Source: a virus. From it: a stretch of DNA of 64,000 nucleotides. The translations under genes and the position numbers were made by a program. The stretch lies in the IMG/VR virus record IMGVR_UViG_3300011008_000186, one strand, 5' to 3'. Positions 5,052 to 22,726 of this stretch are shown here, piece after piece (the first letter of the stretch is position 1; every line of letters begins with the position of its first letter). A model generated the notes under the pieces. That model worked only from the letters and a program-made list of their open reading frames with translations. It was not told where the DNA came from and did no database searches.

Positions 5052-5674
5052 TATTCTCCATACGAATCCAGATCAAAGACAATCTTGTAATCGGTTTCAT
5101 ACAGATCATTTCTCATGTACAGAATTTCCTGTCCATCTTCGAGATATGAAGCAAAATCAAGGCCGACGAATCGATCAATATCATTAGGGCTGAGCATTTC
5201 ATCGTCTTCTGTAAAAAGATGAATCATATCATTGCAGCCCAGCTCAACACATGAATAATCTTCAATTGCTCCATAATCCGATTCGGATATAGGTCTCGGC
5301 AGCTGGCTGAATGAATTCTCAACTACTTCTTCGTCGTCAGGATCCAAATGTGTATATCCCTCCGGAAGATTATCGGTCGGATATTCTTCTTCGGCAGATG
5401 CAGGATCCACTGTCTTCGTATAGTCAACTTTGTTCGTTGAATAGTTTTCATAATATTCTGCCAGAGGCGTCTTATCATCAATGACGTTCGGTTTTTCTTC
5501 TTCCACGCCATTCGAATAGGTTGGTTCGTCTACGCCTAAATACTCGTGCAGCTGCTTTACTTCTTCTGTTAATCTGGATTCAAAATATAATTTTTTAGCA
5601 AGAACATAACCGGCTGCGACTCCAGCACCCAGTCCGGTTATTCCACTAATTGCTATTAACGCATTTTTGTTCAT
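5051..5674 (-). CDS. N-terminally membrane-anchored acidic protein
   Basis: ORF with SD AAGGAG. N-terminal helix ALIAISGITGLGAGVAAGYVLA, remainder D/E-rich. Confidence 0.6.
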   Translation of the reverse strand: MNKNALIAISGITGLGAGVAAGYVLAKKLYFESRLTEEVKQLHEYLGVDEPTYSNGVEEEKPNVIDDKTPLAEYYENYSTNKVDYTKTVDPASAEEEYPTDNLPEGYTHLDPDDEEVVENSFSQLPRPISESDYGAIEDYSCVELGCNDMIHLFTEDDEMLSPNDIDRFVGLDFASYLEDGQEILYMRNDLYETDYKIVFDLDSYGE

Positions 5675-6704: not shown

Positions 6705-7305
6705 CTAACGGAACAGCTTTGGGTAAATCCAAATACCATTTTCCTCCGGACGAAACAACTCGCGCCTCGTCTTCCGCAAGACTATACCAACCATATCTTG
6801 CATCGGCCGGACTTCCAACAGGCTTTCCGTTTTCATCCATAGTTTCGGCAAGATCATACATATCTCGTACAGAACATACTTTGTATCTGTTTATTGCGGC
6901 TCGCATATTCATTAACACTTTTTCTGCTTTGCCCATCGAGGTAAATTCGACATCTGCATAATCATATACGGATGTATACTTTTTGTTCAGACGAGACGAT
7001 GAAGAAAGCTGGCTTTGGGTCGACGGCTTCTTATAATATCTTTCATAAGATACCGAATCTTCCCGGCTTCTCGATCTGGATACACCAGACGAATTACCCC
7101 AAAGCAAAGCGTGTGTTCCTTTACTTATAGTGTCATCGAGAAGATTTTTGACAGCTGGTATTAAAATATCTTTTACGATATAGTTTCCAACCGACGCCAA
7201 ACTTTCAGGAAAAAATGTTTTAACTGCACTCCTGGTCGAGTTTCTTTTTACAAGATACGTTTGATCTACTACTGGCTCTAAACGTTTTTCTTTTTCGTCG
7301 GCCAT
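6697..7305 (-). CDS. Hypothetical protein
   Basis: 202-aa ORF, overlaps its neighbours by a few nt (operon-like). Confidence 0.6.
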   Translation of the reverse strand: MADEKEKRLEPVVDQTYLVKRNSTRSAVKTFFPESLASVGNYIVKDILIPAVKNLLDDTISKGTHALLWGNSSGVSRSRSREDSVSYERYYKKPSTQSQLSSSSRLNKKYTSVYDYADVEFTSMGKAEKVLMNMRAAINRYKVCSVRDMYDLAETMDENGKPVGSPADARYGWYSLAEDEARVVSSGGKWYLDLPKAVPLDE

Positions 7306-11153: not shown

Positions 11154-11774
11154 TTAATTCTCCTTTTTTCGTATATCGATACGACCGTAGTCATAAATAT
11201 CAATAGCAACTTCAAAATCCGCATGTGGCGAATTCAATACAACTTCGTCTATCTGTGTATCGAATATCGGACTATTCGAAAAATTCTCCGTGAACTTACT
11301 AACATTTTCAGCAAATGCCTCTGCGTCTTCTTTCCTTCTGAAGAAATAATAATCTTCAAACGGATCGCCATCATCATATGGGTTATCAGACAGTACCGTG
11401 CATCGATAAGTTGTAATATCGCATCCATAAAGTGATTGTAAGCGGTTTACATCTTTTGAAGTGTGGCCATCCCAATGCTTAGCTGTTTCGAGTTCCTGGC
11501 ATGTAAACTTATACCAATGCTTAAGTTCATAATGATAAGTATATGATCCTCTTGGCGTATCGATCCCGACTATAAAGTATTCACCATTAAAACATGGACT
11601 TCCATCTTCATGTCTTTTGCTTTTCCAAGATCGCTCAGGATAAGCATCAACTAAAGCTATTGTTAAATATAATCTCTGCTCATAAAGATCGTTGAATGTA
11701 TGATAACCATCGGACAACTCTCCGATTCCACCCTCTGGTATTTTTGTTAATAAATCTCTAGCTAACTCTGCCAT
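11154..11774 (-). CDS. WDGH-domain-like protein
   Basis: 206-aa ORF with SD AGGAGG. Contains YHTFNDLYEQR and KHWDGHT signatures. Confidence 0.5.
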   Translation of the reverse strand: MAELARDLLTKIPEGGIGELSDGYHTFNDLYEQRLYLTIALVDAYPERSWKSKRHEDGSPCFNGEYFIVGIDTPRGSYTYHYELKHWYKFTCQELETAKHWDGHTSKDVNRLQSLYGCDITTYRCTVLSDNPYDDGDPFEDYYFFRRKEDAEAFAENVSKFTENFSNSPIFDTQIDEVVLNSPHADFEVAIDIYDYGRIDIRKKEN

Positions 11775-11801
11775 TTTAATTACCTCCTATTTTTAGACAA
11801 T

Positions 11802-11835
11802 AAAAAGGAGCGGTTTAAAGTCTCGCTCCAAGACT
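11802..11835 (-). promoter_or_regulatory. Conserved hairpin element (T-element), copy a, variant stem
   Basis: Plus-strand GGAGCG-gtttaaagtct-CGCTCC. It has the same 11-nt loop as the other five copies, and its innermost stem pair is G-C instead of A-T. Confidence 0.6.
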
Positions 11836-11861
11836 GTTTTAGTGGTTTAAAATATAATTAA

Positions 11862-12197
11862 TTATTCATCGAATGCCGGACAACTCGCTTTACATTCTGG
11901 ATAAGGTCCACCACAATTAGCGCATCCCCATGGGATATCACTAGTGTCTTCATATTCCCAATCGTCTTCGTCCATAGTATATCCGCAATTAAAGCATTTA
12001 AATTCTCGTTCCAAATTGCTGTATCTCATCTCAATACCGCATTCGGGGCAATTTGGACAAAAGCCGGAATAATCAGGAATATCATGATAACCTTCGTCAT
12101 CATCATCGGGACCATATCCGTGAAGTCGATCGTGCGCATATGAGCTTTCCGGATGATCGCCAGAACCAGAAAATATATTACCTAAAAACTTGAACAT
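11862..12197 (-). CDS. Acidic Cys-rich (multi zinc-ribbon) protein
   Basis: 111 aa; CPNCPECG..CFNCG..CANCGG..CKASC; D/E-rich. Confidence 0.55.
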   Translation of the reverse strand: MFKFLGNIFSGSGDHPESSYAHDRLHGYGPDDDDEGYHDIPDYSGFCPNCPECGIEMRYSNLEREFKCFNCGYTMDEDDWEYEDTSDIPWGCANCGGPYPECKASCPAFDE

Positions 12198-12259
12198 TGT
12201 GCAACCTCCTCTTAATTTGTAAGGAGATTATACAATGTTTCAACAAGTTTTACTATATT

Positions 12260-13246
12260 TTATTTCGATTCTTCCAAAATGTTTATTCCGATTTTTTCTT
12301 TGACTTTTAGCGCAATTTCATTGATCGATTTACGTCCAAGATTCCTAATATTTTGGAGTTGTTCAAGATGAGATTTTCCCGGACGCGAATCCAAATAGCA
12401 CAATAGATCGTCAATTGTATGTATCCCTTTCCGGATAAGACAGTTGCGGGATCTTACTGACAGTTCAAGTTCATCGATGGACTCTAAATATAAATTTATT
12501 TCGTTGACGTCCACATCTTTCGAATTAATTAATTGAGTTTTTCTTTTAATATATTCTTCATACTCTTTTTCAAAAAGCTCAATCTCTTTCTTTCGCTGAC
12601 ATCCATTATAGCCATATAATATCAATGCGCTACGAGAACTATGACGCATTTTTCGAACAGCTTTGGCAATTATCTGCCGTATTCGCTCTCTAGTAACATG
12701 AAACTTTTTTGCAATTTCATCATACGTCTCATTATTCTGATAGTAGCAAATAATACAATCCCTTTCTCTCTGTGAAAGCATCTGCAGCGCATTTGCTAAA
12801 CCTTGTTCCTGATCGTTAGTAAGCATAGAGTTGCCATTCAAATAATCGCTTCCGTTAAAAATAACATCGAGCAGGTTATAAGGATAAGGAGCAATAAAAC
12901 CATCCGGTATTTCAATAGTTTTATTCTTATTCCTTGGAACTTTCTGAGAATAAAGATACTGTTCATATGAATTTCTACGGGCTAAATTGTAAAAATTAGC
13001 AAGTAACATCTTTATATCATGTTCTTCTAATTCGGTCAGGTTCGTTCTTCCTAAAATATAATCTGTCGGAACCATAAAGAAATCGGCCATCGCCATCAAA
13101 GTATTAACAGTCGGAGCTGCGTACATGCCGATGTAATTTTTTAACTGAGTTTCCTTGATTCCTATTTTTCTAGCGAGATCTCTTTGCGAAATCTGAGCCA
13201 AATCCATTAGTTCTTTTAATTTACTTGAATCCCATTTTTTATTCAT
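12260..13246 (-). CDS. Chimeric transcription factor: XRE-type HTH + sigma-70 region-4-like + RNAP alpha C-terminal-domain-like
   Basis: N-terminal ISQRDLARKIGIKETQLKNYI (XRE helix-turn-helix, HTH). Middle LSQRERDCIICYY..TYDEIAKKFHVTRERIRQIIAKAVRKMR (sigma region 4). C-terminal IDELELSVRSRNCLIRKGIHTIDDLL..IRNLGRKSINEI (alphaCTD helix-hairpin-helix). No sigma region 2 seen. Confidence 0.7.
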   Translation of the reverse strand: MNKKWDSSKLKELMDLAQISQRDLARKIGIKETQLKNYIGMYAAPTVNTLMAMADFFMVPTDYILGRTNLTELEEHDIKMLLANFYNLARRNSYEQYLYSQKVPRNKNKTIEIPDGFIAPYPYNLLDVIFNGSDYLNGNSMLTNDQEQGLANALQMLSQRERDCIICYYQNNETYDEIAKKFHVTRERIRQIIAKAVRKMRHSSRSALILYGYNGCQRKKEIELFEKEYEEYIKRKTQLINSKDVDVNEINLYLESIDELELSVRSRNCLIRKGIHTIDDLLCYLDSRPGKSHLEQLQNIRNLGRKSINEIALKVKEKIGINILEESK

Positions 13247-13248
13247 AT

Positions 13249-13611
13249 CTAATTCTCCTTATTTTGTTTTTTTTTTTGGCACCAAATCGGTTGATTATCA
13301 TTTTCATCAATATCATCGTTCTCTGAAAATTTATGAAGCGTATTCAATCCAAAGCATTCGTTCGTGAATAGATCCATACACCCTAAACATCCGGAAGGAA
13401 TGATACTTTTCAATGGTTTTTCGTTATCTCTGATAAGAAAGCCACAATTCTGCATGTCATTAATATACTCTTCGAATACGGTGCCCTGAAATAAAGAAGA
13501 GAGAGGGATAAATTGATCCCCCTCGTCGTTCATGATTAATCCAAAATTCCGTTTAATTATTGCAAATTGATTACGAAATTCACTTTTATCTAGTTCTGCT
13601 GCTAAAATCAT
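13249..13611 (-). CDS. Hypothetical protein
   Basis: 120-aa ORF. TAG stop 2 nt upstream of the next ATG. Confidence 0.55.
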   Translation of the reverse strand: MILAAELDKSEFRNQFAIIKRNFGLIMNDEGDQFIPLSSLFQGTVFEEYINDMQNCGFLIRDNEKPLKSIIPSGCLGCMDLFTNECFGLNTLHKFSENDDIDENDNQPIWCQKKKQNKEN

Positions 13612-13631
13612 ATTCTAGTCCTCCATTTTTA

Positions 13632-14045
13632 CTATTCATTTTCCCGAAGTACTTTTTCAAAGGCCAGATCAAGACCAACTGCTACAGCCATTAATAATTC
13701 TTTGGATCCCTGCGGATCTGTGGCTATACTATCTATGAATTCCAATATTTCTTTTTCAGAATTGCTTTTTGAAAGAGCTTCTTTGGTTCCAACATCAATT
13801 TTCAAACTTTCAAAAATCATTAACATCGTTTCCTTAGCTTTACTCGGATTAATATCTATCAAATCCACAAGCATATTTATCGATTTGTAAAACTGCGGAA
13901 AACCATCGAAAATCCGGTTCCCATCGGTACTTTTAACTATTCGAGAGACCGATGGATAAACTGAATTTGTAAACTCCATAAGATCATTTGTGCGAAGATT
14001 TCCAGAAGTGAATACCTCGTTAAGTCTTTCCTGTGTTGTTAACAT
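13632..14045 (-). CDS. Hypothetical protein
   Basis: 137-aa ORF, SD AGGAGGAG. Confidence 0.55.
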   Translation of the reverse strand: MLTTQERLNEVFTSGNLRTNDLMEFTNSVYPSVSRIVKSTDGNRIFDGFPQFYKSINMLVDLIDINPSKAKETMLMIFESLKIDVGTKEALSKSNSEKEILEFIDSIATDPQGSKELLMAVAVGLDLAFEKVLRENE

Positions 14046-14086
14046 GTTTCTACTCCTCCTAGTTTGAAATATAATTTAAGAAAAAT

Positions 14087-14117
14087 AAAAGAGCAGTTTA
14101 AAGTCTTGCTCAGGACT
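14087..14117 (-). promoter_or_regulatory. Conserved hairpin element (T-element), copy b
   Basis: aaaagagcagtttaaagtcttgctcaggact, directly upstream of the SD of 13632-14045. Confidence 0.6.
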
Positions 14118-14136
14118 TTTTACAATGTAAGGTTTC

Positions 14137-14283
14137 TTAAAATAGAGCTAAGACACCTACTGTTATTATAATTGTAAATATAGTACCTCCCATTATTACC
14201 CCAGCTATAGTGCCGCTAGTGAATAATATTACAGCAATAGTTACAAATAATACAAATGCTACAATAAATGCTAAAAATCTCAT
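14137..14283 (-). CDS. 48-aa hydrophobic micro-protein (below the ORF-track cutoff)
   Basis: Hand translation gives MRFLAFIVAFVLFVTIAVILFTSGTIAGVIMGGTIFTIIITVGVLALF. SD GAGGAGGTGAATGAAATG. Confidence 0.4.
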   Translation of the reverse strand: MRFLAFIVAFVLFVTIAVILFTSGTIAGVIMGGTIFTIIITVGVLALF

Positions 14284-14295
14284 TTCATTCACCTC

Positions 14296-14325
14296 CTCGT
14301 ATTAGGGAGTCAAAATTTCGCGAAA
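14296..14325 (-). promoter_or_regulatory. TTCGCGAA-type promoter-like element, copy 3
   Basis: Minus strand TTCGCGAAATTTTGACTCCCTAATACGAG. Confidence 0.45.
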
Positions 14326-14356
14326 AGAAAAAGAGCCTCTTAGAATCGAGACTCTT
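14323..14356 (-). terminator. Rho-independent terminator
   Basis: GAGTCTC/GAGGCTC 7-bp stem (one G-U pair), then TTTTTCTTTT on the minus strand. Confidence 0.6.
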
Positions 14357-14379
14357 CGTCTTAAAATATAATCTTCGAG

Positions 14380-14760
14380 TTACTTCTTTAATGGTAAGCT
14401 GAAAAGATTTCTTTTCATGGTTTTTCCATATTCAGTTGTATCGATCATACCTGCCGCATTAATCGAATCAGCATGCTTAATCGCAAATGCCTGTGCACCA
14501 ACACCGATACCAGTTGTTGCCAATGTTGTCGCTATACTAACTTTAGAAATAACATTTTTGGCTTTCTCAACCTCTAATGCATCTCTTTTGTCTCTGATTT
14601 CCGACAATTCTTTAGCATTACTAATAAAGGTATTAGCGTCATCGGGATCACTGCTATTAGCAGCCTTCTCCAATTGCGCAACCATAAGATCGTCAATCTG
14701 GTTACGAATTTCCTGTTCATGTTTCTTTTTTTCTTTCCTTTCTTTAAACCATCTAAACAT
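14380..14760 (-). CDS. Hypothetical protein with a hydrophobic segment
   Basis: ORF track gives 14380-14790. ATG at 14760 has the SD AAAGGAGG. Hydrophobic segment VSIATTLATTGIGVGAQAFAI. Confidence 0.55.
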   Translation of the reverse strand: MFRWFKERKEKKKHEQEIRNQIDDLMVAQLEKAANSSDPDDANTFISNAKELSEIRDKRDALEVEKAKNVISKVSIATTLATTGIGVGAQAFAIKHADSINAAGMIDTTEYGKTMKRNLFSLPLKK

Positions 14761-14785
14761 ATCGTTACCTCCTTTGATTTTATAT

Positions 14786-14815
14786 TTCATAATAGTGCTA
14801 TAATTTTTCGCGAAT
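14786..14815 (-). promoter_or_regulatory. TTCGCGAA-type promoter-like element, copy 4
   Basis: Minus strand TTCGCGAAAAATTATAGCACTATTATGAAA. Confidence 0.5.
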
Positions 14816-14850
14816 ACAGAATATAATAAATTGTTGTCACCTGCGTCGGA

Positions 14851-15060
14851 TTATTCGATCAGACTTTGTTCGGCTTTATCTAAACCATCTAACCATAACA
14901 TAAATTTTCTACAGCATGATGGGCATAAGTCAAGTTCGGACTCGTCGTACTTTGCCAGCTCATCATCGCAGAACCGAGCAACACTCGCGTCAATAGTGAC
15001 GACGACCCGATGATAGTCGTCTACTATTCTGCGACATTTGTCACAAAAATGTTTTACCAT
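14851..15060 (-). CDS. Small zinc-ribbon protein
   Basis: Internal start at 15060 with SD AAGGAGG; MVKHFCDKC...CPSCC. The 169-aa track ORF is an upstream read-through. Confidence 0.5.
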   Translation of the reverse strand: MVKHFCDKCRRIVDDYHRVVVTIDASVARFCDDELAKYDESELDLCPSCCRKFMLWLDGLDKAEQSLIE

Positions 15061-15062
15061 AT

Positions 15063-15158
15063 TTAATCCTCCTTGTTTGAAAATAGTAATACAAAAGCGA
15101 TAAAACCCAAGTTGCCTCCTAAAAGAAATGCAATTGGTAAATACCACCACGGTATCAT
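15063..15158 (-). CDS. 31-aa hydrophobic micro-protein
   Basis: Hand translation gives MIPWWYLPIAFLLGGNLGFIAFVLLFSNKED. ATGA overlap with the upstream stop. Confidence 0.35.
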   Translation of the reverse strand: MIPWWYLPIAFLLGGNLGFIAFVLLFSNKED

Positions 15159-15421
15159 AATTCTTCTCCTTTCTCTTCGTAGTATTCATCGTCTTCAAAT
15201 ACTTTTCTAAAATTAACAGCATGGCGAACGTCAGTAGTTCGTTTACAATCCGGAAAGCATTTACCATCTTCGCATCTCTGCCGATCGCAAATATAAGTAA
15301 CTTTAGGACAAATAGGCATATTTTTAATAACTGTAATAACCCAGGTGGGTACATCGGCATTAATTTTTTCAGATATACTAAGTCTTTTTAAAAGATCATT
15401 TTTATCGATATATTCGTTCAT
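15155..15421 (-). CDS. Cys-rich small protein
   Basis: 88-aa ORF; CPKVTYICDRQRCEDGKCFPDC. Confidence 0.5.
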   Translation of the reverse strand: MNEYIDKNDLLKRLSISEKINADVPTWVITVIKNMPICPKVTYICDRQRCEDGKCFPDCKRTTDVRHAVNFRKVFEDDEYYEEKGEEL

Positions 15422-15448
15422 AATGGTAGTTAACCTTTCATTATTTAT

Positions 15449-15796
15449 TTATCCTCTATCGTTTATCATGGTAGTTCCTATAGCATATGTTCTTCCGCAA
15501 TAAGGACACATAAATATATGCTTATTGGCGTTCAGTTCTATTGTTCCTCCACAAGAATTGCATTTGTGTTCCAGAACAGGAACTTCTGATAAAGATTGCA
15601 TGAATTCTTCGAATAATGCTTTCTTAACATTATCTGACAAATTAATTTCAAATTCTCCTTGCGAAACGCGTATCTTATTAATGAACCGATGATCACTCGA
15701 AGTTGCTGGCTCATAAATTTTGGAGTTTCTTCTCCCTCCTGGTGTGGTAATTAACGTATTCGACATATCACTTACATTAATTGTAGCTTGGTCCAT
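15449..15796 (-). CDS. Zinc-ribbon protein
   Basis: 115 aa; CNSCGG...CPYCG. Start context AAAGGAGATTATATTTATG. Confidence 0.55.
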   Translation of the reverse strand: MDQATINVSDMSNTLITTPGGRRNSKIYEPATSSDHRFINKIRVSQGEFEINLSDNVKKALFEEFMQSLSEVPVLEHKCNSCGGTIELNANKHIFMCPYCGRTYAIGTTMINDRG

Positions 15797-15828
15797 AAAT
15801 ATAATCTCCTTTCATTATTAAAATGAAA

Positions 15829-15900
15829 CAACGGCAGCAGGAATCGAACCTACATATACTGGGTCAAAGCCAGTCACACTCACCATTGTGCTATGCCGCT
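15829..15900 (-). tRNA. tRNA-Gln (anticodon UUG)
   Basis: Hand fold: acceptor AGCGGCA/TGCCGTT, D arm GCAC/GTGT, anticodon stem ACTGG/CCAGT with loop CTTTGAC, T arm GTAGG-TTCGATT-CCTGC. CCA is not encoded. Confidence 0.8.
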
Positions 15901-15932
15901 AAAAAGAGCAGTTTAAAGTCTTGCTCAGGACT
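15901..15932 (-). promoter_or_regulatory. Conserved hairpin element (T-element), copy c, abutting the tRNA 5' end
   Basis: aaaaagagcagtttaaagtcttgctcaggact. Its T-run ends at the first tRNA nucleotide. Confidence 0.6.
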
Positions 15933-15940
15933 ACTTCGTA

Positions 15941-16456
15941 TTACTCTATTTTTATTCCGGTTATTTCTTCAAAAATATCCGCATCAAAATTGGGTAATGC
16001 CTTGATTTTTTCTTCATCGCCGTCAATAAGTGTTTTATCATTTATGCGGCAGCATAATTTGCAAAAATTATAATCAAGCGCATTCAGCCATTCACTTCTT
16101 GTCATGTCATATTCCCGGTTAAATGCTCTCAGCTTCGGTTCGTTCGTATTGAATATTCCACTGTTGTAGTTTCCACTGTTGTAGTTTCCGCTGTTCCAGT
16201 TTCCACTGTTGCAGTTTCCGCTGTTGTGTCTTCCACTGTTCCAGTTTCCGCTGTTCCAGTCTCCACTGTTCCAGTGTCCACTGTTGCGCATTCCGCTGTT
16301 GTAGTATCCACTATTGTGCATTCCGCTGTTGCAGTTTCCGCTGTTGCAGTTTCCGCTGTTGCCGTTTCCGCTGTTGCAGTTTCCACTGTTGCGCATTCCG
16401 CTGTTGTAGTATCCACTATTGTAGTTTCCACCAAAACTTTGTCCCTTCCTGTTCAA
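15941..16456 (-). CDS. Pentapeptide-repeat protein (about 20 x NSGxx) with a globular C-terminal domain
   Basis: GNYNSGYYNSGMRNSGNCNSG... with strict 5-aa periodicity. TTG start. Overlaps the upstream ORF by 41 nt in another frame. Confidence 0.65.
   Translation of the reverse strand: MNRKGQSFGGNYNSGYYNSGMRNSGNCNSGNGNSGNCNSGNCNSGMHNSGYYNSGMRNSGHWNSGDWNSGNWNSGRHNSGNCNSGNWNSGNYNSGNYNSGIFNTNEPKLRAFNREYDMTRSEWLNALDYNFCKLCCRINDKTLIDGDEEKIKALPNFDADIFEEITGIKIE
16146..16432. repeat. 15-nt-period tandem DNA repeat encoding the pentapeptide array
   Basis: Repeating ttccactgttgcagt-like units. These explain the spurious ORFs 16129-16434(-) and 16226-16489(+). Confidence 0.85.
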
Positions 16457-16661
16457 TATTCCCTAATGCTTCTATTACGGCAATCTTAGTCTCGCCGTCC
16501 ATTGGATAATAGCCGAATACGTCTATTGGGTTTGCGCAAAAGTGGAATCCGCATTTGCACATCTTTAACTTTTCTCCCTCGGCAAGTTCATATGTCTTTC
16601 CGATTTCATACTGGAAATCTCTACACGTCCAATCTTTGTTAAATGCCTTATACCCTTTCAT
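16416..16661 (-). CDS. N-terminal module usually fused to phage pentapeptide-repeat proteins (possible frameshifted single gene with 15941-16456)
   Basis: MKGYKAFNKDWTCRDFQYEIGKTYE..CGFHFCANPIDVFGYY matches, from memory, the usual N-terminus of this phage protein family. SD AGGAGG. Ends in TAG inside the overlap. Confidence 0.55.
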   Translation of the reverse strand: MKGYKAFNKDWTCRDFQYEIGKTYELAEGEKLKMCKCGFHFCANPIDVFGYYPMDGETKIAVIEALGNIEQEGTKFWWKLQ

Positions 16662-16683
16662 TTTTAATTCCTCCTAATTTTTA

Positions 16684-17523
16684 TTAATTCCAGCAATAAA
16701 TGCCTCTTTCTGTGTAAATATAATCGTTCGGAATTGTGCAGCCATTACAATATTTACAATACGTAGGATCCTGATAACACATAAGTAAATAATCATATGC
16801 GTAATCAGCAATTCCAAGACTATCCATCCAGGTTCCATATTGGGTGTCTATTTCGCCAAAAGCAGAATATAAATTTCCATACCCCCAATAGTCTTCCGTT
16901 GCACGAACCCAACAGCAACATGCGACATAATAGCTGAGCATGCTCTCTCCGTAACCTTCATAGGTTATAAGCTTAAGTGTTCTTTCAGTGTCTAAGTGAC
17001 TAATACCATACCGATCAAGCCCAAGTTCAAATACATCATCAGATGAATCGAACACAATTGGCTGATCAGGAATCTCGGCATAAGCTAAAGATTCTTGTAT
17101 ATTATTATTACTCGCGATTTTAGGGGTAATATGCGAACATAATTCGTCTATTGCTTGCTGCACTTCATCGAATCGATCACCGAGAGCTATTTTTCTTTCC
17201 TCGCCATTGCCAAAAGATCCTTGAAGCACTGCATCAATGAGTTCGTCAATAGTCATGGAAGAAATATAATCTTCCGTTTCGATTTTTACATTAACTTCTA
17301 CATCGGTTTCTTCCACAAAAGTTTCTTCCGAGTCAGATGACGATTCTGGAAATTCTTCGGCAACGGCGACTCTCGGTATCGAGGTCTCCAAAATAGTTTC
17401 GGTTGTTTCTTGAGTCGTTTCCTCGATTAGTTCATTTGAGTTATTATGCTCACTTATAAATACCAATGTTGCAGCTGAGATAATAACTACAATAATACAT
17501 ATTACTGCGTACTTTGCTTTCAT
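16684..17523 (-). CDS. Secreted or anchored cell-wall-binding protein (CW_7-like motif) with a possible cell-wall hydrolase domain
   Basis: N-terminal helix AVICIIVVIISAATLVFI. IDELIDAVLQGSFGNGEERKIALGDRFDEVQQAI resembles the Cpl-7 (CW_7) repeat. The Cys/aromatic-rich C-terminal domain is unassigned. Confidence 0.45.
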   Translation of the reverse strand: MKAKYAVICIIVVIISAATLVFISEHNNSNELIEETTQETTETILETSIPRVAVAEEFPESSSDSEETFVEETDVEVNVKIETEDYISSMTIDELIDAVLQGSFGNGEERKIALGDRFDEVQQAIDELCSHITPKIASNNNIQESLAYAEIPDQPIVFDSSDDVFELGLDRYGISHLDTERTLKLITYEGYGESMLSYYVACCCWVRATEDYWGYGNLYSAFGEIDTQYGTWMDSLGIADYAYDYLLMCYQDPTYCKYCNGCTIPNDYIYTERGIYCWN

Positions 17524-17548
17524 GTTTCATACTCCTTTAAATAAAAAT

Positions 17549-17579
17549 AAAAGAGCAGTTTAAAGTCTTGCTCAGGACT
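17549..17579 (-). promoter_or_regulatory. Conserved hairpin element (T-element), copy d
   Basis: aaaagagcagtttaaagtcttgctcaggact, directly upstream of the SD of 16684-17523. Confidence 0.6.
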
Positions 17580-17624
17580 TATACAAAGGAGTACGATTAT
17601 GGACATACTCCTTCTGATCTAATT

Positions 17625-17648
17625 AAAAAGAAGAGCCTTAGTAGGCCC
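17625..17648 (-). terminator. Weak rho-independent terminator
   Basis: GGGCC-TACTAA-GGCTC, then TTCTTTTT on the minus strand. Confidence 0.45.
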
Positions 17649-17727
17649 TTCCCTTATGCATAAACTCGATTATTGCTTTTATAATACCCCGTACTGTTTC
17701 TATTGCTAGTTCAATTCTAATCGTCAT
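17638..17727 (-). CDS. 29-aa micro-ORF
   Basis: MTIRIELAIETVRGIIKAIIEFMHKGRAY; SD AAAGGAGAATACGCCATG. Low confidence. Confidence 0.25.
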   Translation of the reverse strand: MTIRIELAIETVRGIIKAIIEFMHKGRAY

Positions 17728-17765
17728 GGCGTATTCTCCTTTCTGTAAAAAACATAATCTTGTTT

Positions 17766-17797
17766 CTGCATAATAGGACAACTAAAAATCGCGAAAA
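17766..17797 (-). promoter_or_regulatory. TTCGCGAA-type promoter-like element, copy 5 (TTCGCGAT variant)
   Basis: Minus strand TTCGCGATTTTTAGTTGTCCTATTATGCAG. Confidence 0.45.
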
Positions 17798-17818
17798 AAA
17801 AAGAGAGCCCACGCCCTC
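17794..17818 (-). terminator. Rho-independent terminator
   Basis: GAGGGC-GTGG-GCTCTC, then a T9 run on the minus strand. Confidence 0.6.
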
Positions 17819-17832
17819 TTAACTATTTGCAA

Positions 17833-18138
17833 TTAATATTCAATGACGCTTATAGTACCGTCATCGTTAATAACTGTCTGATAGTTAGAGTTCATAGACT
17901 CCTCTTTTTTGCTAACAATTTCTTTTGCTTCTTTCAAGACTTTAAGTCCATTCGTTACTCGTTTTGCGTGCCAAGGCAATAAAACTACCTCAGCGATCGT
18001 TGCTGCTGTTAGAACTGCTGCAGTCTTCTTAACTGCTTTTTCATCTGCAAGCATGTCAAACGTTTCTGCAAGATCTTCTGAGGCCTGTTTAAAATCATCC
18101 TCGGTTACTCCAAAACCTAAATATCTTTTAATGTTCAT
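17833..18138 (-). CDS. Hypothetical protein
   Basis: 101-aa ORF, SD AAAGGAGAACATTATG. Confidence 0.55.
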   Translation of the reverse strand: MNIKRYLGFGVTEDDFKQASEDLAETFDMLADEKAVKKTAAVLTAATIAEVVLLPWHAKRVTNGLKVLKEAKEIVSKKEESMNSNYQTVINDDGTISVIEY

Positions 18139-18178
18139 AATGTTCTCCTTTCATATATAAGCAAACACTAATAGTTAT

Positions 18179-18207
18179 CTTCATATAAGGAGACCAAAAT
18201 TTCGCGA
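18179..18207 (-). promoter_or_regulatory. TTCGCGAA-type promoter-like element, copy 6 (consensus)
   Basis: Minus strand TTCGCGAAATTTTGGTCTCCTTATATGAAG. Confidence 0.55.
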
Positions 18208-18216
18208 AAAAAAAAA

Positions 18217-18248
18217 AAAGAGAGCAGTTTAAAGTCTTGCTCAGGACT
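18217..18248 (-). promoter_or_regulatory. Conserved hairpin element (T-element), copy e
   Basis: agagagcagtttaaagtcttgctcaggact. A T13 run joins it to promoter-like copy 6. Confidence 0.6.
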
Positions 18249-18262
18249 TTGAATATTATTAA

Positions 18263-18577
18263 TTAACTGATATACTCCGATCTTATTTTCTGAAGCACAA
18301 TACTTAGTACTCTGTTCTCTGCCATTGTGTTTAGTTTTCTTGTGACAAATGGTGCCAAAGCAAATTGCAGAGCGTAACCAACATTAAACATCGCTTCCTC
18401 TTCATCTAAGTTTGATATAAGTTCATCAAAATCAAATGTCTCGTCATCGATCATTTGTTGTATTGCATTCTCTGCAGCTTTTGCTGCAACATCATTATCC
18501 AATAAAACTTTTATAGCATTAAACGGAGTTCCTGGTAAAAATGTTCTGATAATAAATTTTTTAATGCCCTTATTCAT
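18263..18577 (-). CDS. Hypothetical protein
   Basis: 104-aa ORF, SD AGGAGGTAATTGATATG. Confidence 0.55.
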   Translation of the reverse strand: MNKGIKKFIIRTFLPGTPFNAIKVLLDNDVAAKAAENAIQQMIDDETFDFDELISNLDEEEAMFNVGYALQFALAPFVTRKLNTMAENRVLSIVLQKIRSEYIS

Positions 18578-18607
18578 ATCAATTACCTCCTAAAATATAA
18601 TATTATT

Positions 18608-18636
18608 CTTCATATAAGGAGACTAAAATTTCGCGT
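18608..18636 (-). promoter_or_regulatory. TTCGCGAA-type promoter-like element, copy 7 (overlaps the stop of the ATPase gene)
   Basis: Minus strand AACGCGAAATTTTAGTCTCCTTATATGAAG. Confidence 0.5.
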
Positions 18637-19273
18637 TCCGATATCTTCTATCTTTTGTTTTCTTGGTCTTTAAAATATAATCTCGATACTCTTCGTAATT
18701 AGCAAAAGTAATATATTTGCCAACTGCTACATCAAGACATTTTTCACCGCGAGCAAGTTCGTATTCATTTGCTGCCGCAACAATATAAATTGCAACATTT
18801 TTATTAGTATCAATAATGGCATCGAACAATTCTTTGAGCTCGATAATGCCATCAATCGAAAAACCAGAATCTACAGAATCCATTAATATCCATATTTCCT
18901 CAATACCAATGCGAGCACGAATATTTGTACCTATCTTTTTAGCAAATAAATGTAAATTCTGTTTTATACGTTCGCCTTCTGACGACATTACTTGATCGGC
19001 GAGAAGATCGTAACGTTGAAGTTGCAAGAATTGCTGCCAATTATTTCCGCTGCCATCATGTAAATTATCATATGCTATATATAAAACATTATGCTTCTTA
19101 CATTGTTCCTCTATATTATTTAATAAAGTAGTTTTGCCAATTCCGTTGCACCCGACAAGAACAGTCAGACCGAGCTCAAATTGTATCTCTCGTTTATAGG
19201 TTGTCGAGAATCCAATATCATAAGGATCCCTCCAAGTTTTTATCAGCCCATTTAATTTTCCAAACGAGTTCAT
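18623..19273 (-). CDS. Minimal ABC/SMC-type ATPase
   Basis: Start moved to 19273 (SD AAAGGAGATCGCATAATG). Walker A GCNGIGKTT, signature-like SSEGE, Walker-B-like WILMDSVDSG. Confidence 0.6.
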   Translation of the reverse strand: MNSFGKLNGLIKTWRDPYDIGFSTTYKREIQFELGLTVLVGCNGIGKTTLLNNIEEQCKKHNVLYIAYDNLHDGSGNNWQQFLQLQRYDLLADQVMSSEGERIKQNLHLFAKKIGTNIRARIGIEEIWILMDSVDSGFSIDGIIELKELFDAIIDTNKNVAIYIVAAANEYELARGEKCLDVAVGKYITFANYEEYRDYILKTKKTKDRRYRNAKF

Positions 19274-19292
19274 TATGCGATCTCCTTTCTGC

Positions 19293-19340
19293 AAAAAAAA
19301 AATAAGAAAAGAAAAAGAGGACATCATTTCTAATGTCCTC
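19293..19340 (-). terminator. Rho-independent terminator
   Basis: GAGGACAT/ATGTCCTC 8-bp stem followed by a T-rich tract on the minus strand. Confidence 0.7.
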
Positions 19341-19351
19341 AACATTTCTAT

Positions 19352-19627
19352 TTAGTCTACTGAGTGAAACTCGATGTTCGTGAAATGCGGATCTGATGAC
19401 ATGTTAAATTCGAATTCAATTCCTGCTGCATCAAACGTCATTGATAATTTATCATCTTTTACCAACATACAATAACTACCACCATCGGGCGTCATCATTG
19501 CTACGCCGTAATTTTTCTCATTATCAATAATGTTAATTACAACATTATTGTATTCGCCGTTACTGTCAATAAATCCAGCTTCAACTAAAGATGTTCCTCT
19601 TTGTACTGAAATAAAATGTTTCTGCAT
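19352..19627 (-). CDS. Hypothetical protein
   Basis: Start moved to 19627 (SD AAAAGGAGGAAC). The longer track ORF reads through the promoter-like element. Confidence 0.55.
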   Translation of the reverse strand: MQKHFISVQRGTSLVEAGFIDSNGEYNNVVINIIDNEKNYGVAMMTPDGGSYCMLVKDDKLSMTFDAAGIEFEFNMSSDPHFTNIEFHSVD

Positions 19628-19671
19628 TGTTAAGTTCCTCCTTTTCGTTTTTACAAAATTGTTATATATCT

Positions 19672-19700
19672 TTTCATATAAGGAGACCAAAATTTCGTGA
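19672..19700 (-). promoter_or_regulatory. TTCGCGAA-type promoter-like element, copy 8 (TCACGAAA variant)
   Basis: Minus strand TCACGAAATTTTGGTCTCCTTATATGAAAAG. Confidence 0.45.
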
Positions 19701-19706
19701 GAAAAA

Positions 19707-19738
19707 CAAAAGAGCAGTTTAAAGTCTTGCTCAGGACT
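19707..19738 (-). promoter_or_regulatory. Conserved hairpin element (T-element), copy f
   Basis: aaaagagcagtttaaagtcttgctcaggact, immediately upstream of promoter-like copy 8. Confidence 0.6.
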
Positions 19739-21676: not shown

Positions 21677-22726
21677 ATGGCCAAATATAGTAAATATATA
21701 ACATTAGGGTATAATTCGGACGGAAACCGTGTAAGGAAACGAGCTTACGGCAACACAAAAATCGAATTGGAATCAAATATAGCCAGGTTAAAAAGAGAAT
21801 ATCTTGAATCGATTGCCAATAATCACGTAACGTTTAAAAAGTATGCACAAACTTGGCTCAACACATATAAAAAAGGGACCTCGCCGAGAACTTATGATAT
21901 GTATGATCAGTTATTGAAGAAGTGCAAAGAGCTCGATCCGTTCGAAATGATGGAGATCAAACGATCCGATATACAAAATCTGATGAATGATTTAATAGAT
22001 AGACCGAATCTGCATAACAAAGTATTAATGTGCCTTAATCAGGTGTTTGAGTCGGCAATAATGGACGAAATCGTTCGAATTAATCCGGTAAAAGGAATAT
22101 CAAAGCAAAAAACAATAGTAAAAGAAAAACGTGCGTTGACAACAAACGAGAAAAGAATACTAGCAACTATCAACTTCGAGCCGAAAGAACAGATGTTTAT
22201 TGATCTGCTTCTCAATTTTGGATTACGTCCTGGAGAAGCACTTGCGTTAACAAAAGATGACTTCGATTTCGCAAATAATACATTGACCATCAGCAAGGCG
22301 ATTACTTTCGTTACTAATGATCCTATATTAAAGGGTACAAAAACCGGGACAGTTAGAACGCTTCCCATCCCGGCTTCATTAGTACCCAAAACGAAACAAT
22401 ACCTTGACGAATCTGAAAATATACTTTTTGACATGCAAAAACAAGGAGACTATGGATATATGACAAAAATGGCCTACCGAATATTCAAAAATGAAATATT
22501 CGAGAAAATTAATATTGCATTAGGAGGTAACAATAATAATGACAAGTTAAACGGTATGACTTTTTATACTTTCCGACATAACAAAGCTACTGCTTTATAC
22601 TATGTGGATGGGTTGAGTTTAAAAGCCAAGGCGGAGTATATGGGTCATTCGGTAAGCATGCTTCTTAAAATATATTCTCATATTGACAAGGAAAAGGAAA
22701 ATAGCGAAAAATATAATGTGATTTAA
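21677..22726 (+). CDS. int: Tyrosine integrase
   Basis: LRPGEALAL (Arg), FYTFRHNKAT (His-x-x-Arg), GHS..LLKIYSH (His, Tyr). N-terminal SAM-like domain. Confidence 0.95.
   Translation: MAKYSKYITLGYNSDGNRVRKRAYGNTKIELESNIARLKREYLESIANNHVTFKKYAQTWLNTYKKGTSPRTYDMYDQLLKKCKELDPFEMMEIKRSDIQNLMNDLIDRPNLHNKVLMCLNQVFESAIMDEIVRINPVKGISKQKTIVKEKRALTTNEKRILATINFEPKEQMFIDLLLNFGLRPGEALALTKDDFDFANNTLTISKAITFVTNDPILKGTKTGTVRTLPIPASLVPKTKQYLDESENILFDMQKQGDYGYMTKMAYRIFKNEIFEKINIALGGNNNNDKLNGMTFYTFRHNKATALYYVDGLSLKAKAEYMGHSVSMLLKIYSHIDKEKENSEKYNVI

Follow-up and report, generated by a model that had tools for sequence, protein, structure and literature searches.

Six copies of a short element in a 64-kb viral DNA stretch (the window) belong, judging from sequence comparison, to a very widespread family of tiny intergenic RNA pseudoknots of phages that is apparently uncatalogued. 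The prediction that a 5-bp hairpin and an AGUC/GACU helix between its loop and its 5' flank form one H-type pseudoknot is well supported by covariation. From the anatomy and genomic context of this pseudoknot (the knot), we tentatively propose, at somewhat below an even chance, that it is a compact triplex structure that stays folded between translating ribosomes and insulates and caps segments of the transcript. We collected at least 482 instances in at least 388 viral and bacterial loci, with hosts among the Firmicutes, Actinobacteria, Cyanobacteria, Alphaproteobacteria, Bacteroidales, and candidate phyla. The sample is skewed to the commonest stem, GAGYA/UGCUC, because several search patterns fixed that stem. 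No family in Rfam 15 matches the motif, and a literature search by sequence found no paper on it.

Six copies in the window

A sequence search of the window found the loop GTTTAAAGTCT exactly six times, always on the plus strand (11813, 14096, 15911, 17558, 18227, and 19717). The 31-mer AAAAGAGCAGTTTAAAGTCTTGCTCAGGACT lies at 14087, 15902, 17549, 18218 (one mismatch), and 19708, with 0 occurrences expected by chance (100 shuffles), and the sixth copy (11802-11838) has the stem GGAGCG...CGCTCC around an identical loop. The six copies, invariant loop, and variant stem reported by the first-pass annotation are thus all present, with three of its start coordinates off by one base. The minus strand is the coding strand of every gene here, and all six copies are read on it. 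A covariance model (CM) built from relatives matches only these six sites in the window (Table 1). Similarity between copies ends at the motif edges, and five of them are identical even where the family leaves positions free.

Table 1. Minus-strand features at the six knot copies (SD, Shine-Dalgarno)
Feature	Position	CM score (bits)	RNA of knot and following tract	Context
Copy 1, divergent variant	11798..11835 (-)	20	A-GUC / UU / GGAGCG / A / GACU / UUAAAC / CGCUCC (11835-11807), then UUUUUAUUG; fold -11.6 kcal/mol	SD and ATG of WDGH-domain gene (11154-11774; Pfam WDGH) downstream
Copy 2	14080..14117 (-)	49	A-GUC / CU / GAGCA / A / GACU / UUAAAC / UGCUC (14117-14091), then UUUUAUUUUUC	SD and ATG downstream at 45 nt; no promoter-like site in the gap
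tRNA-Gln, anticodon UUG	15828..15901 (-)			ARAGORN; Rfam tRNA, 64.9 bits
Copy 3	15901..15932 (-)	47	Knot 15932-15906 plus UUUUU	Stem to tRNA-Gln start, 4-5 nt
Copy 4	17539..17579 (-)	48	Knot 17579-17553 plus UUUUAUUUUUAUUU	SD and ATG of 279-aa CW_7-repeat protein (Pfam) at 29 nt
Separate hairpin	~17613-17586			Immediately 5' of copy 4
Promoter-like repeat motif CGCGAAATTTTGGTCTCCTTATATGAA	18180..18206 (-)			Abuts copy 5
Copy 5	18207..18248 (-)	49	Knot 18248-18222 plus UCUUUUUUUUUUUUU	Promoter-like repeat motif next
Promoter-like repeat motif (CACGAAATTTTGGTCTCCTTATATGAA)	19673..19699 (-)			Abuts copy 6
Copy 6	19700..19738 (-)	49	Knot 19738-19712 plus UUUUGUUUUUCU	Promoter-like repeat motif next

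As the first-pass annotation had recognized, the element is terminator-like in this window: a U-tract directly follows the knot in all six copies. It had also argued that unconditional termination at the four copies preceding an SD sequence or the tRNA would silence the genes downstream, and this point stands; SD sequences with an ATG lie 29 to 45 nt past the copies at 11.8, 14.1, and 17.5 kb. At 18.2 and 19.7 kb, the U-tract leads into a second repeated motif, which is promoter-like. Knot plus U-tract takes the place of canonical terminators before a promoter motif in this window and in three collected loci (L003, L008, and L009). The early operon of this phage contains many terminators, and the folding energy of the knot hairpin by itself (helix S2, below) is -5.1 kcal/mol (z about 0), versus -14.7 and -17.2 kcal/mol for canonical terminators of the same operon. 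A simple terminator scan did not call the knot copies.

Covariation of both helices

The family consensus, N-G(U/A)C – CU – 5-bp stem – N – G(A/U)C-N' – NN-AAAC – stem, spans 26 to 30 nt. Helix S1 (4 bp) pairs N-G-U/A-C with G-A/U-C-N', and helix S2 (5 bp) has an invariant A-U closing pair. The connecting loops measure 2 nt (loop 1, CU), 1 nt (a junction nucleotide unconstrained across the family), and 6 nt (loop 3, NN-AAAC). A viral scan constrained only at GTCCT and the loop listed 57 matches, of which 51 had at least four of the five S2 positions paired (about 7% by chance); the matches carried many different stems. Across 110 distinct sequences, covariation is seen at four of the five S2 pairs, with 97.8% of cells paired; none of 500 shuffles reached the covariation score. 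Because G-U pairs are common (at least 50 cells in S2) and non-standard pairs rare (12 cells), the structure is assigned to the sense strand.

Evidence for S1 comes from positions that the searches did not constrain. Its outer pair (columns 4:19), left free by all search patterns, was CG 30 times, AU 27, UA 20, UG 6, GC 3, GU 2, and another combination 22 times. A search that required GAC in the flank but accepted either GAC or GTC in the loop listed 120 matches, all 120 of them with GTC. A GAC...GUC version of S1 occurs in Staphylococcus phage B166 and Lactobacillus phage KC5a, and a CUC...GAG version in Vibrio phage D456. Among phages that can be cultured, candidate carriers of the knot include S. 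aureus phages B166 and B122, L. gasseri phage KC5a, and Mycobacterium phage Labelle. Where the search pattern did not constrain them, loop 1 was CU in 141/150 matches listed and the loop end was AAAC in 140/150. By analogy, these near-invariant CU and AAAC segments probably sit in the helix grooves as base triples of the luteovirus type.

The first-pass annotation had taken the hairpin for a selected structure of the minus-strand transcript and had noted the pairing between loop and flank; both hold, and both helices are preserved by covariation among relatives. The single compensatory change that it cited is weak evidence alone, and the support now comes from hundreds of relatives elsewhere. 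Its further proposal, that the flank-loop helix and the stem are mutually exclusive folds of a conditional attenuator, is not supported. The two helices share no nucleotides and covary within one and the same sequence set, as expected of a pseudoknot but not of a switch, and loops of 2, 1, and 6 nt also fit a pseudoknot. Neither strand of the stem has a conserved competing partner, and our analysis found no evidence for an alternative fold competing with the stem. We regard the attenuator as highly improbable, even though a U-tract follows every copy, four copies precede genes without an intervening promoter, and a hairpin weak by itself could let an extra input decide termination.

The conserved unpaired nucleotides also bear on a nut/put-type site in nascent RNA, at which a host factor, RNA polymerase itself, or here a phage protein would bind and alter downstream termination. 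The early operon is rich in terminators, and the combination of a 5-bp hairpin, a fixed loop, and a conserved 5' flank is reminiscent of boxA/boxB; UGCUCUUU, past the loop, resembles rrn boxA. However, this string lies within S2 and is lost through covariation in relatives, conservation across hosts of many phyla rules out a phage-specific partner, and up to 8 copies per 10 kb exceed what processive antitermination needs, so we consider such a site quite unlikely. Since the motif spans phages of many phyla and its flanking genes are unrelated, a link to RinA/ArpU-like or sigma4-alphaCTD proteins, which the first-pass annotation had suggested, is likewise unlikely as a general rule.

Placement relative to genes and RNA features

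The distance from stop codon to knot, determined for 412 collected cases, has a minimum of about 5-6 nt and a sharp peak at 6–7 nt (5 nt, 7 cases; 6 nt, 74; 7 nt, 38; 8 nt, 25; then declining). From knot to start codon, the minimum is 20 nt and the peak lies at 20-29 nt. Frameshift and read-through pseudoknots are spaced 5-6 nt from the A-site codon, which equals the spacing from the stop to the first S1 pair. The knot might therefore act on the ribosome at the stop codon, by pausing, recycling, or blocking scanning, or serve as a standby site or enhancer that borders the next ribosome-binding site on its 5' side; start codons never lie closer than 20 nt, and many of the leaders downstream have little G and no Shine-Dalgarno sequence. 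We nevertheless think such a role rather unlikely: the 412 cases contain no slippery heptamers and no conserved spacer before the knot, the reading frame past the stop varies, about one copy in three is far from any stop codon, and the knot also precedes untranslated tRNAs, ribozymes, and noncoding RNAs.

A U-tract follows 64/450 collected knots (14%), versus at most 1/450 control windows. Within 200 nt of collected knots, 17 tRNAs lie downstream and only 2 upstream; tRNAs start 4, 5, 5, 5, 8, and 12 nt downstream, and a tRNA-like start 2 nt downstream in L016 was read by eye and is clipped by the locus end. A type III hammerhead match sits directly downstream of the knot in L006 (Rfam 45.1 bits, E = 5.7e-7; just under the gathering score of 48.5 bits), as do hammerhead core-pattern matches in L004 and L296, and no true hammerhead was found upstream of a knot among the collected loci. 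The knot also occurs directly upstream of the DUF2800 RNA. Downstream of about 84% of family members there is neither a U-tract nor a tRNA nor a ribozyme. Some knots, about 17 of 450, come 2-5 nt past a canonical terminator (Saccharibacteria, marine T7-like contigs, and L018), and at about 25 bacterial loci a small open reading frame ends within the knot.

This arrangement would also suit a processing signal, cut by a nuclease or by the RNA itself, that separates cistrons, tRNAs, and noncoding RNAs as the early RNase III sites of T7 do. Knots lie between cistrons, as many as 8 of them before successive genes in L149 and L160; they come immediately 5' of tRNAs, hammerheads, and the DUF2800 RNA, and in marine T7-like contigs a knot precedes the first small gene, close to the end of the contig. 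We judge processing unlikely, however: adjoining hammerheads and tRNAs (RNase P sites) suggest that the knot does not cleave itself, nearly all conserved bases of a 26-nt RNA can be assigned to helices or groove contacts, so that few are left to build an active site, the motif matches no ribozyme family, and we know of no bacterial nuclease that recognizes such a knot.

The same positions, past terminators, 20-30 nt before starts, and 2-5 nt before tRNAs, are promoter-like, which raises a DNA-level element: a promoter whose start site falls on the 3' border of the motif, or a PeSL-like recombination hot spot that shuffles gene cassettes. The identity of five window copies at family-free positions suggests copying or gene conversion, and the same variant flanks unrelated genes in other phages. 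No -35 signal lies upstream, however, and tolerance of G-U but not A-C pairs, pseudoknot helix included, would be meaningless in duplex DNA. The hard limit of about 6 nt past stop codons points to ribosomes rather than polymerase. Recombination may be a side effect and cannot explain conservation across phyla; overall, a DNA-level element is very unlikely.

Proposed function and comparison with known systems

The insulating and capping role that we prefer would operate as follows. Each copy is transcribed together with the early genes of this temperate phage, which are read leftward. S1 would fold first and pre-organize the weak S2 hairpin, giving a bulkhead, presumably mechanically stable (by analogy) and nuclease resistant, between units of the polycistronic RNA. 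It would stand just beyond the footprint of the upstream terminating ribosome (about 6 nt past the stop) and that of the downstream initiating ribosome (at least 20 nt before the start), and would therefore stay folded during translation, expose no single strand beside the genes, and insulate neighboring RNA units. Where a 3' end is made just downstream, by a U-tract, by RNase P at a tRNA 2-12 nt away, or by a hammerhead ribozyme, the knot would remain on the upstream message as a protective 3' cap.

Because S1 would pre-organize S2, knot and U-tract in the window probably act as an intrinsic terminator, though a weak and leaky one, and stabilize the 3' end. Two of the window sites would close a unit right in front of the next promoter-like motif; through the remaining four, a sizeable share of polymerases would have to continue to the downstream genes and tRNA-Gln. 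Capping is not the whole story of the family, because most members lack any of the three downstream features. Past canonical terminators, there would be no need for a 3' cap, and the knot more plausibly serves the downstream unit; tRNAs downstream, and almost never upstream, make the knot look more like a start-of-unit element. Where a small open reading frame ends inside the knot, ribosomes must unfold it.

In the window, the stems resemble intrinsic terminators in being directly followed by a U-tract, with two copies in canonical terminator position; unlike them, they have a 5-bp stem, an 11-nt loop, and -5 kcal/mol against the canonical -15 to -17, and a U-tract follows only 14% of the collected family. 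T7 early genes are separated by RNase III processing hairpins, which leave a structure on the 3' end of the upstream RNA. The knot is likewise intercistronic, repeated along an early operon, and found before the first gene in T7-like contigs, but RNase III requires about 20 bp of duplex and the knot helices have only 4 and 5 bp. In size and topology, the knot resembles the preQ1-I riboswitch aptamer (34 nt): both are H-type pseudoknots of very small size, and the A-rich loop of the knot would, by analogy, likewise lie in a helix groove; some members adjoin a terminator. A minimal riboswitch, in which a small molecule bound by the knot tunes termination or stability, would accord with the highly conserved unpaired bases and with U-tracts directly past S2 in some members. 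We find it hardly credible, however: no Rfam or riboswitch family matches, the stem lengths are reversed relative to preQ1-I, the junction nucleotide is unconstrained, the motif shows no association with queuosine-metabolism genes, and it is multicopy and precedes unrelated genes, tRNAs, and ribozymes, unlike ligand-specific regulons. As a putative exonuclease block defining the ends of stable RNA segments, the knot would be analogous to REP 3' stabilizers, 5' stabilizers, and flaviviral xrRNA, with no sequence or structural kinship to them.

The PeSL elements of T4-type phages are composite terminator/promoter cassettes whose stem-loops are ordinary hairpins differing in sequence between phage pairs (PMC2839356, PMC4122927). 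Like them, the window copies combine a repeated stem-loop with an early-promoter unit among small accessory genes in a plastic region, and are homogenized within the genome; unlike them, the motif is a pseudoknot conserved across phyla, mostly without a promoter. In anatomy, the knot recalls the 28-nt -1 frameshifting pseudoknots of luteoviruses and enamoviruses such as BWYV, which have a 2-nt loop 1 starting with C and an A-rich loop 3. Both are compact H-type folds with two short stems, such loops, and a 1-nt junction, and both begin 5-6 nt past the ribosomal A-site codon. Unlike the BWYV type, the phage knot follows a stop codon, has no slippery heptamer or overlapping frame, and resides in intergenic RNA of DNA phages, often in multiple copies and also before tRNAs and ribozymes.

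Fold and covariation of the repeated element

The first-pass annotation reported six repeated hairpins in the window, and these are real: their 11-nt loop, GTTTAAAGTCT, has six occurrences, all on the plus strand, and a search for the complete 31-mer with up to one mismatch gives five matches against a chance expectation of none. Three of the reported start coordinates were one base low. All genes at 8-21 kb lie on the minus strand, and read on this strand the element is A-GUC-CU-GAGCA-A-GACU-UUAAAC-UGCUC followed by a U-tract, while the 11.8-kb copy reads A-GUC-UU-GGAGCG-A-GACU-UUAAAC-CGCUCC. Similarity between copies stops at the edges of the motif; thus, it is not part of a larger repeat. 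A covariance model made from relatives recovered only the six sites across 64 kb.

To describe the fold, we used an alignment of 110 distinct instances. The 5-bp hairpin stem (S2) covaries at four of its five pairs, and the closing A-U pair is invariant. G-U pairs are frequent and nonstandard combinations are rare, indicating that the structure forms on the sense strand. A second, 4-bp helix (S1) pairs the flank with the loop. Its outer pair (the base before GUC with the base after GAC; columns 4:19) was left free by every search pattern, and it is CG in 30 instances, AU in 27, UA in 20, UG in 6, GC in 3, GU in 2, and unpaired in 22. The middle pair (column 6:17, UA/AU) occurs both as GUC...GAC and as GAC...GUC; when the flank was set to GAC and the loop left free as G[A/T]C, the loop read GUC in 120 of 120 among the matches listed, and isolates B166 and KC5a carry the GAC...GUC state. 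At columns 5:18, GC is replaced by CG in Vibrio phage D456 (CUC...GAG). Since this copy lies opposite annotated small ORFs, either their annotation is doubtful or the copy is antisense.

S1 and S2 share no nucleotides, and their strands are interleaved. They are connected by a 2-nt loop 1 (CU in 141 of 150), a free 1-nt junction, and a 6-nt loop 3 (NN-AAAC in 140 of 150), so that in the alignment 2 nt span the 5-bp S2 and 6 nt span the 4-bp S1; by comparison with known pseudoknots, these lengths suffice to cross the grooves. The topology is that of a textbook H-type pseudoknot, with covariation in both helices. The covariation that preserves a helix, on whose presence among homologues the first-pass annotation had staked its claim, was therefore found twice over. 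The annotation had also proposed that the flank-loop helix and the hairpin are mutually exclusive folds of an attenuator or antiterminator. The flank-loop helix exists, as covariation at 4:19, 6:17, and 5:18 demonstrates, but it forms one pseudoknot with the hairpin instead of excluding it, and we regard a two-state attenuator as highly improbable.

In the frameshifting pseudoknots of luteoviruses, a C-containing loop 1 and an A-rich loop 3 make triples in the grooves. By analogy, the CU and AAAC loops may form such triples here, which would account for the invariance of the closing A-U pair and of the bases outside the helices.

Distribution among phages and bacterial genomes

A scan of IMG/VR with GAGCNAGACTTTAAACNGCTC returned 10 contigs, 4-267 kb in length. 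With the stem left free (GTCCT-N5-AGACTTTAAAC), 50 contigs were returned; of 57 matches in them, 51 were complementary in four or more of the five stem positions, and their many different stems included GAGCA/UGCUC, AAAUA/UGUUU, GGGCA/UGUUC, AGGUA/UGCCU, GACCA/UGGUC, UGACA/UGUCA, and others; in a relaxed-loop scan, the conserved part shrank to xGAC-NNN-AAAC only. Three viral scans with the full consensus and a scan of bacterial genomes each gave at least 120 matches. Overall, we collected at least 482 instances from at least 388 sources (3.46 Mb), with up to eight per locus, counts that are biased as abundances because the commonest stem or loop was fixed in several of the patterns. Except in the relaxed-stem and GAC-flank scans, an instance was kept if four or more of its five S2 positions paired.

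Conservation of the knot extends over phages of many phyla. BLAST with 33-mers identified it in isolated phages of Firmicutes (Staphylococcus, with more than 80 records, Lactobacillus, Bacillus megaterium, Anoxybacillus, and Geobacillus), of Mycobacterium and Arthrobacter, of Synechococcus, Nostoc, and Microcystis, and of Paracoccus, as well as in Roseophage SIO1 (Roseobacter) and crAss-like phages. Individual carriers include the S. aureus Phietaviruses B166/B122, whose knot separates the genes for the minor head protein and the scaffold, L. gasseri phages KC5a and phi adh, Mycobacterium phage Labelle, and B. megaterium phage Page. The knot hardly occurs in 7.3 Gb of plasmid sequence, and an idea that it belongs to plasmid leading regions was dropped on this ground. 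In searches with single 33-mers, 5,426 complete E. coli genomes yielded nothing for one common variant, and phages of Escherichia, Salmonella, Klebsiella, and Pseudomonas were not found among the organism tallies and matches listed for such queries. To judge from these searches, enterobacterial phages may carry the knot less often than others, perhaps hinting at a host factor such as RNase J; the compensated variant in Vibrio phage D456 blurs this pattern, however, and the host-factor idea was dropped.

MAGs of Saccharibacteria/Patescibacteria were abundant among the matches listed in the genome scan (loci L175-L278). Here the knot follows recurrent small proteins with the C-termini ...WRDLLQHAFRQVDWLEIIKANLD, ...GPFGLKVERD...DIPRW, and ...CDPLD..C.R.LTIM.A.EY, which we take to resemble anti-restriction-island proteins of the DUF2958 and DUF3768 types, and a pentapeptide-repeat-like protein lies downstream. 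The surrounding DNA could be of phage or mobile-element origin. Separately, the 5' half of the motif (GAGTCCTGAGTAA) matches the standard AFLP MseI adapter primer GATGAGTCCTGAGTAA, an apparent coincidence that is worth remembering in contamination screens.

Placement and neighbors of the knot

The position of the knot relative to genes is constrained on both sides. In distances taken from raw open frames, the G of GUC lies 5 nt past the upstream stop in 7 cases, 6 nt in 74, 7 nt in 38, and 8 nt in 25, with a decay thereafter, that is, with a hard lower limit and a peak at 6-7 nt; the first S1 pair is thus 5-6 nt past the stop. With a stop codon in the A site, this is the entrance of the ribosomal mRNA channel. 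Distances to the following start codon run from 20 nt upward with a maximum at 20-29 nt, which is the 5' edge of an initiating ribosome. Placed in this way, the knot would stay folded during translation on either side. Orientation of neighboring genes (convergent versus divergent) did not separate a 3' from a 5' role, as raw ORFs were too noisy for this purpose.

Elements that may make an RNA 3' end recur just behind the knot. tRNAs within 200 nt are downstream in 17 cases and upstream in 2, with starts 4, 5, 5, 5, 8, and 12 nt downstream of the knot; in one further locus (L016), a tRNA-like start was recognized by eye 2 nt downstream, where the locus end cuts it off. Hammerhead ribozymes or matches to their core pattern directly follow the knot in three loci (see the table), the type III match scoring below the Rfam gathering threshold; the locus that carries it (L006) has a second hammerhead at 5236-5292. 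A U-tract follows the knot in 64 of 450 cases (14%), compared to at most 0.3% (no more than 1 of 450) in control windows, and among the genomes richest in A+T this share rises to 26%. A canonical terminator ends 2-5 nt upstream of about 4% of the knots.

Two further associations were seen in particular lineages. The DUF2800 RNA was detected behind one knot (L053), and the same downstream sequence was recognized by eye in the Clostridia prophages L152, L210, L240, L283, L251, L259, and L263; in such prophages, the knot and the RNA lie between a small protein ending in ...SELYAIEADLR and a gene for a sigma-4-like late regulator. Among the matches listed, about 25 loci from Deltaproteobacteria, Thermodesulfobacteriota, and Actinobacteria contain a Cys-rich ORF of 20-26 codons (M-[KR]-R-[FY]-M-x-P-R-x-A-H-C-x-x-G-C-x-x-x-S) with a strong Shine-Dalgarno (SD) sequence in front, its UGA stop inside the knot (G-UCC-UGA), and a canonical terminator 30-50 nt later. 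Its third-position changes are synonymous, indicating that it is translated. The peptide matched no Pfam or NCBIfam family and has no constant neighbor gene; by eye, some of these ORFs adjoin merA-like or Fur-family-like genes.

The window belongs to a temperate phage with an integrase (21677-22726, plus strand), for which megablast with 9.5 kb found no close relative among 50,697 phage records. Divergent, strong sigma-70-like promoters lie at about 21.2 kb, and beyond them a leftward operon of small early genes contains several canonical terminators. Behind three of the six knots, an SD and ATG come 29-45 nt later; behind one, tRNA-Gln begins 4-5 nt away; and two precede a second repeated motif, CGCGAAA-N11/12-TAtaAT-GAA (CGCGAAATTTTGGTCTCCTTATATGAA). 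About 11 copies of this motif lie in the early region, most of them behind a canonical terminator and T-run. The motif has a TATAAT-type -10-like hexamer, lacks a canonical -35, and may represent a class of promoter (middle?) particular to the phage. Sites of similar sequence, CGCRAAA...TATAAT, come after the knot in three other loci (L001, L003, and L008). The protein with sigma-70 region 4 and alpha-CTD that the annotation had named is indeed encoded here, with an XRE-type HTH in addition; this uncommon architecture is a candidate reader of the CGCGAAA motif.

Other features adjoin individual copies. Near-identical 12-nt units (aacagcggaaac / aacagtggaaac ...) at 16129-16434 (minus strand) within ORF 15941-16456 encode a repetitive segment of the N-S-G-N type just upstream of copy 3. 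A separate 10-bp hairpin (aaggaguaugu...acuccuu, about 17613-17586, minus strand) without a U-tract lies 6 nt upstream of copy 4 and resembles the order of terminator and then knot in other lineages.

Features associated with the knot and the second motif (L numbers denote collected viral or bacterial loci that carry the knot; other positions are those of the window)
Feature	Location	Strand	Remarks
Hammerhead type III	L006 6740-6824	-	Begins at next base after knot; Rfam 45.1 bits (gathering threshold, 48.5 bits), E = 5.7e-7
Hammerhead core-pattern matches	L004 ~1900-2005; L296 ~2520-2631	-	Within about 20 nt downstream of knot
DUF2800 RNA (RF02960)	L053 258-445		160 bits; starts one base after knot
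Cys-rich ORF loci	L221 ~7170-7264; L254, L258, L277, L282, L285, L290, L190, L203, L249, L265, L293, others		
Vibrio phage D456 variant	L429 401-427 (record 55528-55554)	Opposite annotated small ORFs	S1 = CUC/GAG, loop 1 = CC
Second motif, main copies	20252-20226, 20040-20014, 19699-19673, 18635-18609, 18206-18180	-	
Second motif, weaker copies	Starts near 20574, 17795, 14812, 14322, 9275, 8033	-	
XRE-type HTH (HTH_3) + sigma-70 region 4 + RNA polymerase alpha C-terminal domain fusion, 328 aa	12260-13246	-	Pfam E = 1e-9 to 1e-17

Possible roles and comparison with known systems

For a knot that flanking ribosomes would never unfold and in which every base would be structural, the simplest role we infer is that of a physical barrier or insulator. 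What would be three independent 3'-end makers recur right behind it (the U-tract, RNase P at the tRNA, and the hammerhead), and each such event would part the downstream RNA from the knot. With a cut behind it, the knot would most plausibly cap the 3' end of the upstream RNA or permit independent folding on both sides. In the window, the knot and U-tract may also act as a partial terminator and, at two sites, would take the place of canonical terminators before the promoter-like motif. A U-tract directly after the stem, present in all six window copies, is a feature shared with intrinsic terminators; however, these require a G+C-rich, stable hairpin with a loop of 3-8 nt, whereas the knot loop is 11 nt, and a terminator scan of the window did not call the knot. 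S2 alone is weak (-5.1 kcal/mol, z about 0, versus -14.7 and -17.2 for adjacent canonical terminators); S1 and the groove contacts would therefore be needed for termination, which would have to be partial, since four window copies precede genes or the tRNA with no promoter between. This combination of barrier, 3' cap, and partial terminator is our preferred explanation, held tentatively and at somewhat under even odds; it fits most poorly with the knots that directly follow terminators, with how rarely tRNAs lie upstream, and with the small ORF whose end falls within the knot.

The knot could also be a processing signal, with an action like that of the T7 RNase III sites, of which it is not a member. 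Adjoining hammerheads and tRNAs speak, indirectly, against self-scission of the knot, and we consider processing unlikely. A translation-linked element would account for the spacing to the stop, which resembles that of stimulators of -1 frameshifting and read-through (peak 6-7 nt after the stop). Around the knot, though, there is no slippery heptamer, conserved spacer, or conserved downstream frame; the frame after the stop varies, and a 7-nt distance puts a UGA in frame. Frameshifting and read-through were dropped accordingly, and a translation-linked role in general is distinctly unlikely.

A site bound by a factor or by RNA polymerase for antitermination would recall the lambda-type nut site, to which N and Nus factors bind, and the knot does hold a boxA-like UGCUCUUU. 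This sequence belongs to the covarying stem, however, and the 11-nt loop differs from the GNRA-like pentaloop of boxB; we rate this role as quite improbable. We rate a promoter or recombination element acting as DNA as very unlikely: upstream of the knot there is no information content except an A at -1 and no -35 of the sigma-70 type, a promoter scan gave no excess over shuffles, and TTGACA abuts the motif only in a few marine contigs; the promoter reading was dropped. Likenesses, judged in part by eye, to the hammerhead, group I intron R/S, CRISPR repeats (Cas12a, Cas13b, and St1), integron attC, SECIS, boxA, and a tRNA-like acceptor were also rejected, as the matching letters were covarying stem positions or the order or spacing did not fit. 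Finally, the preQ1-I aptamer works in a similar way, but the knot is not a member of that family, and a riboswitch is extremely unlikely.

Rfam 15 at the gathering threshold matched only tRNA in the window, and permissive searches (E up to 5-10), including one with a 66-nt slice, returned nothing relevant. No family covered the motif in 18 bacterial loci; across the window, slice, and related loci, the matches were to tRNA, hammerhead, DUF2800 RNA, and unrelated riboswitches, none over the motif. Sequence and keyword searches of the literature found no description, although an earlier one is possible. If the knot is undescribed, as these searches suggest, it would rank with the most widespread of the small structured RNAs that phages carry. 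It would offer an experimentally tractable 26-nt model for how phages order and stabilize polycistronic RNA, a landmark for annotating where units begin and end in phage genomes, possibly a ready-made genetic insulator or stabilizer for synthetic biology, and, through its exact spacing to stops and starts, an in vivo readout of the footprints of terminating and initiating ribosomes.

Of the systems compared, the frameshifting pseudoknots of luteoviruses have an architecture closely like that of the knot. The PeSL elements of T4-type phages, stem-loops with an early promoter directly behind them between accessory ORFs, work in a similar way but differ in structure and are lineage-specific sequences of T4-like myoviruses, whereas the knot is shared by phages of many phyla and the window phage is temperate with an integrase; a putative promoter motif follows two of the six window copies, but not the other four. 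We would place the knot among cis-acting mRNA pseudoknots or stabilizer-terminators, with a fair, though less than even, chance that it represents a new functional class. It is likewise possible, rather than probable, that it represents a new, very widespread RNA class specific to phages and phage-like elements, either a universal roadblock of about 26 nt in bacterial mRNA, with a triple helix, or a new minimal processing signal. As a roadblock spaced to the edges of ribosome footprints, it would stop exonucleases, RNase scanning, or helicases, and phages would thereby modularize polycistronic transcripts, such that gene cassettes, tRNAs, and ribozymes become independent of context. The knot would then be, in effect, a bacterial counterpart of the viral xrRNAs.
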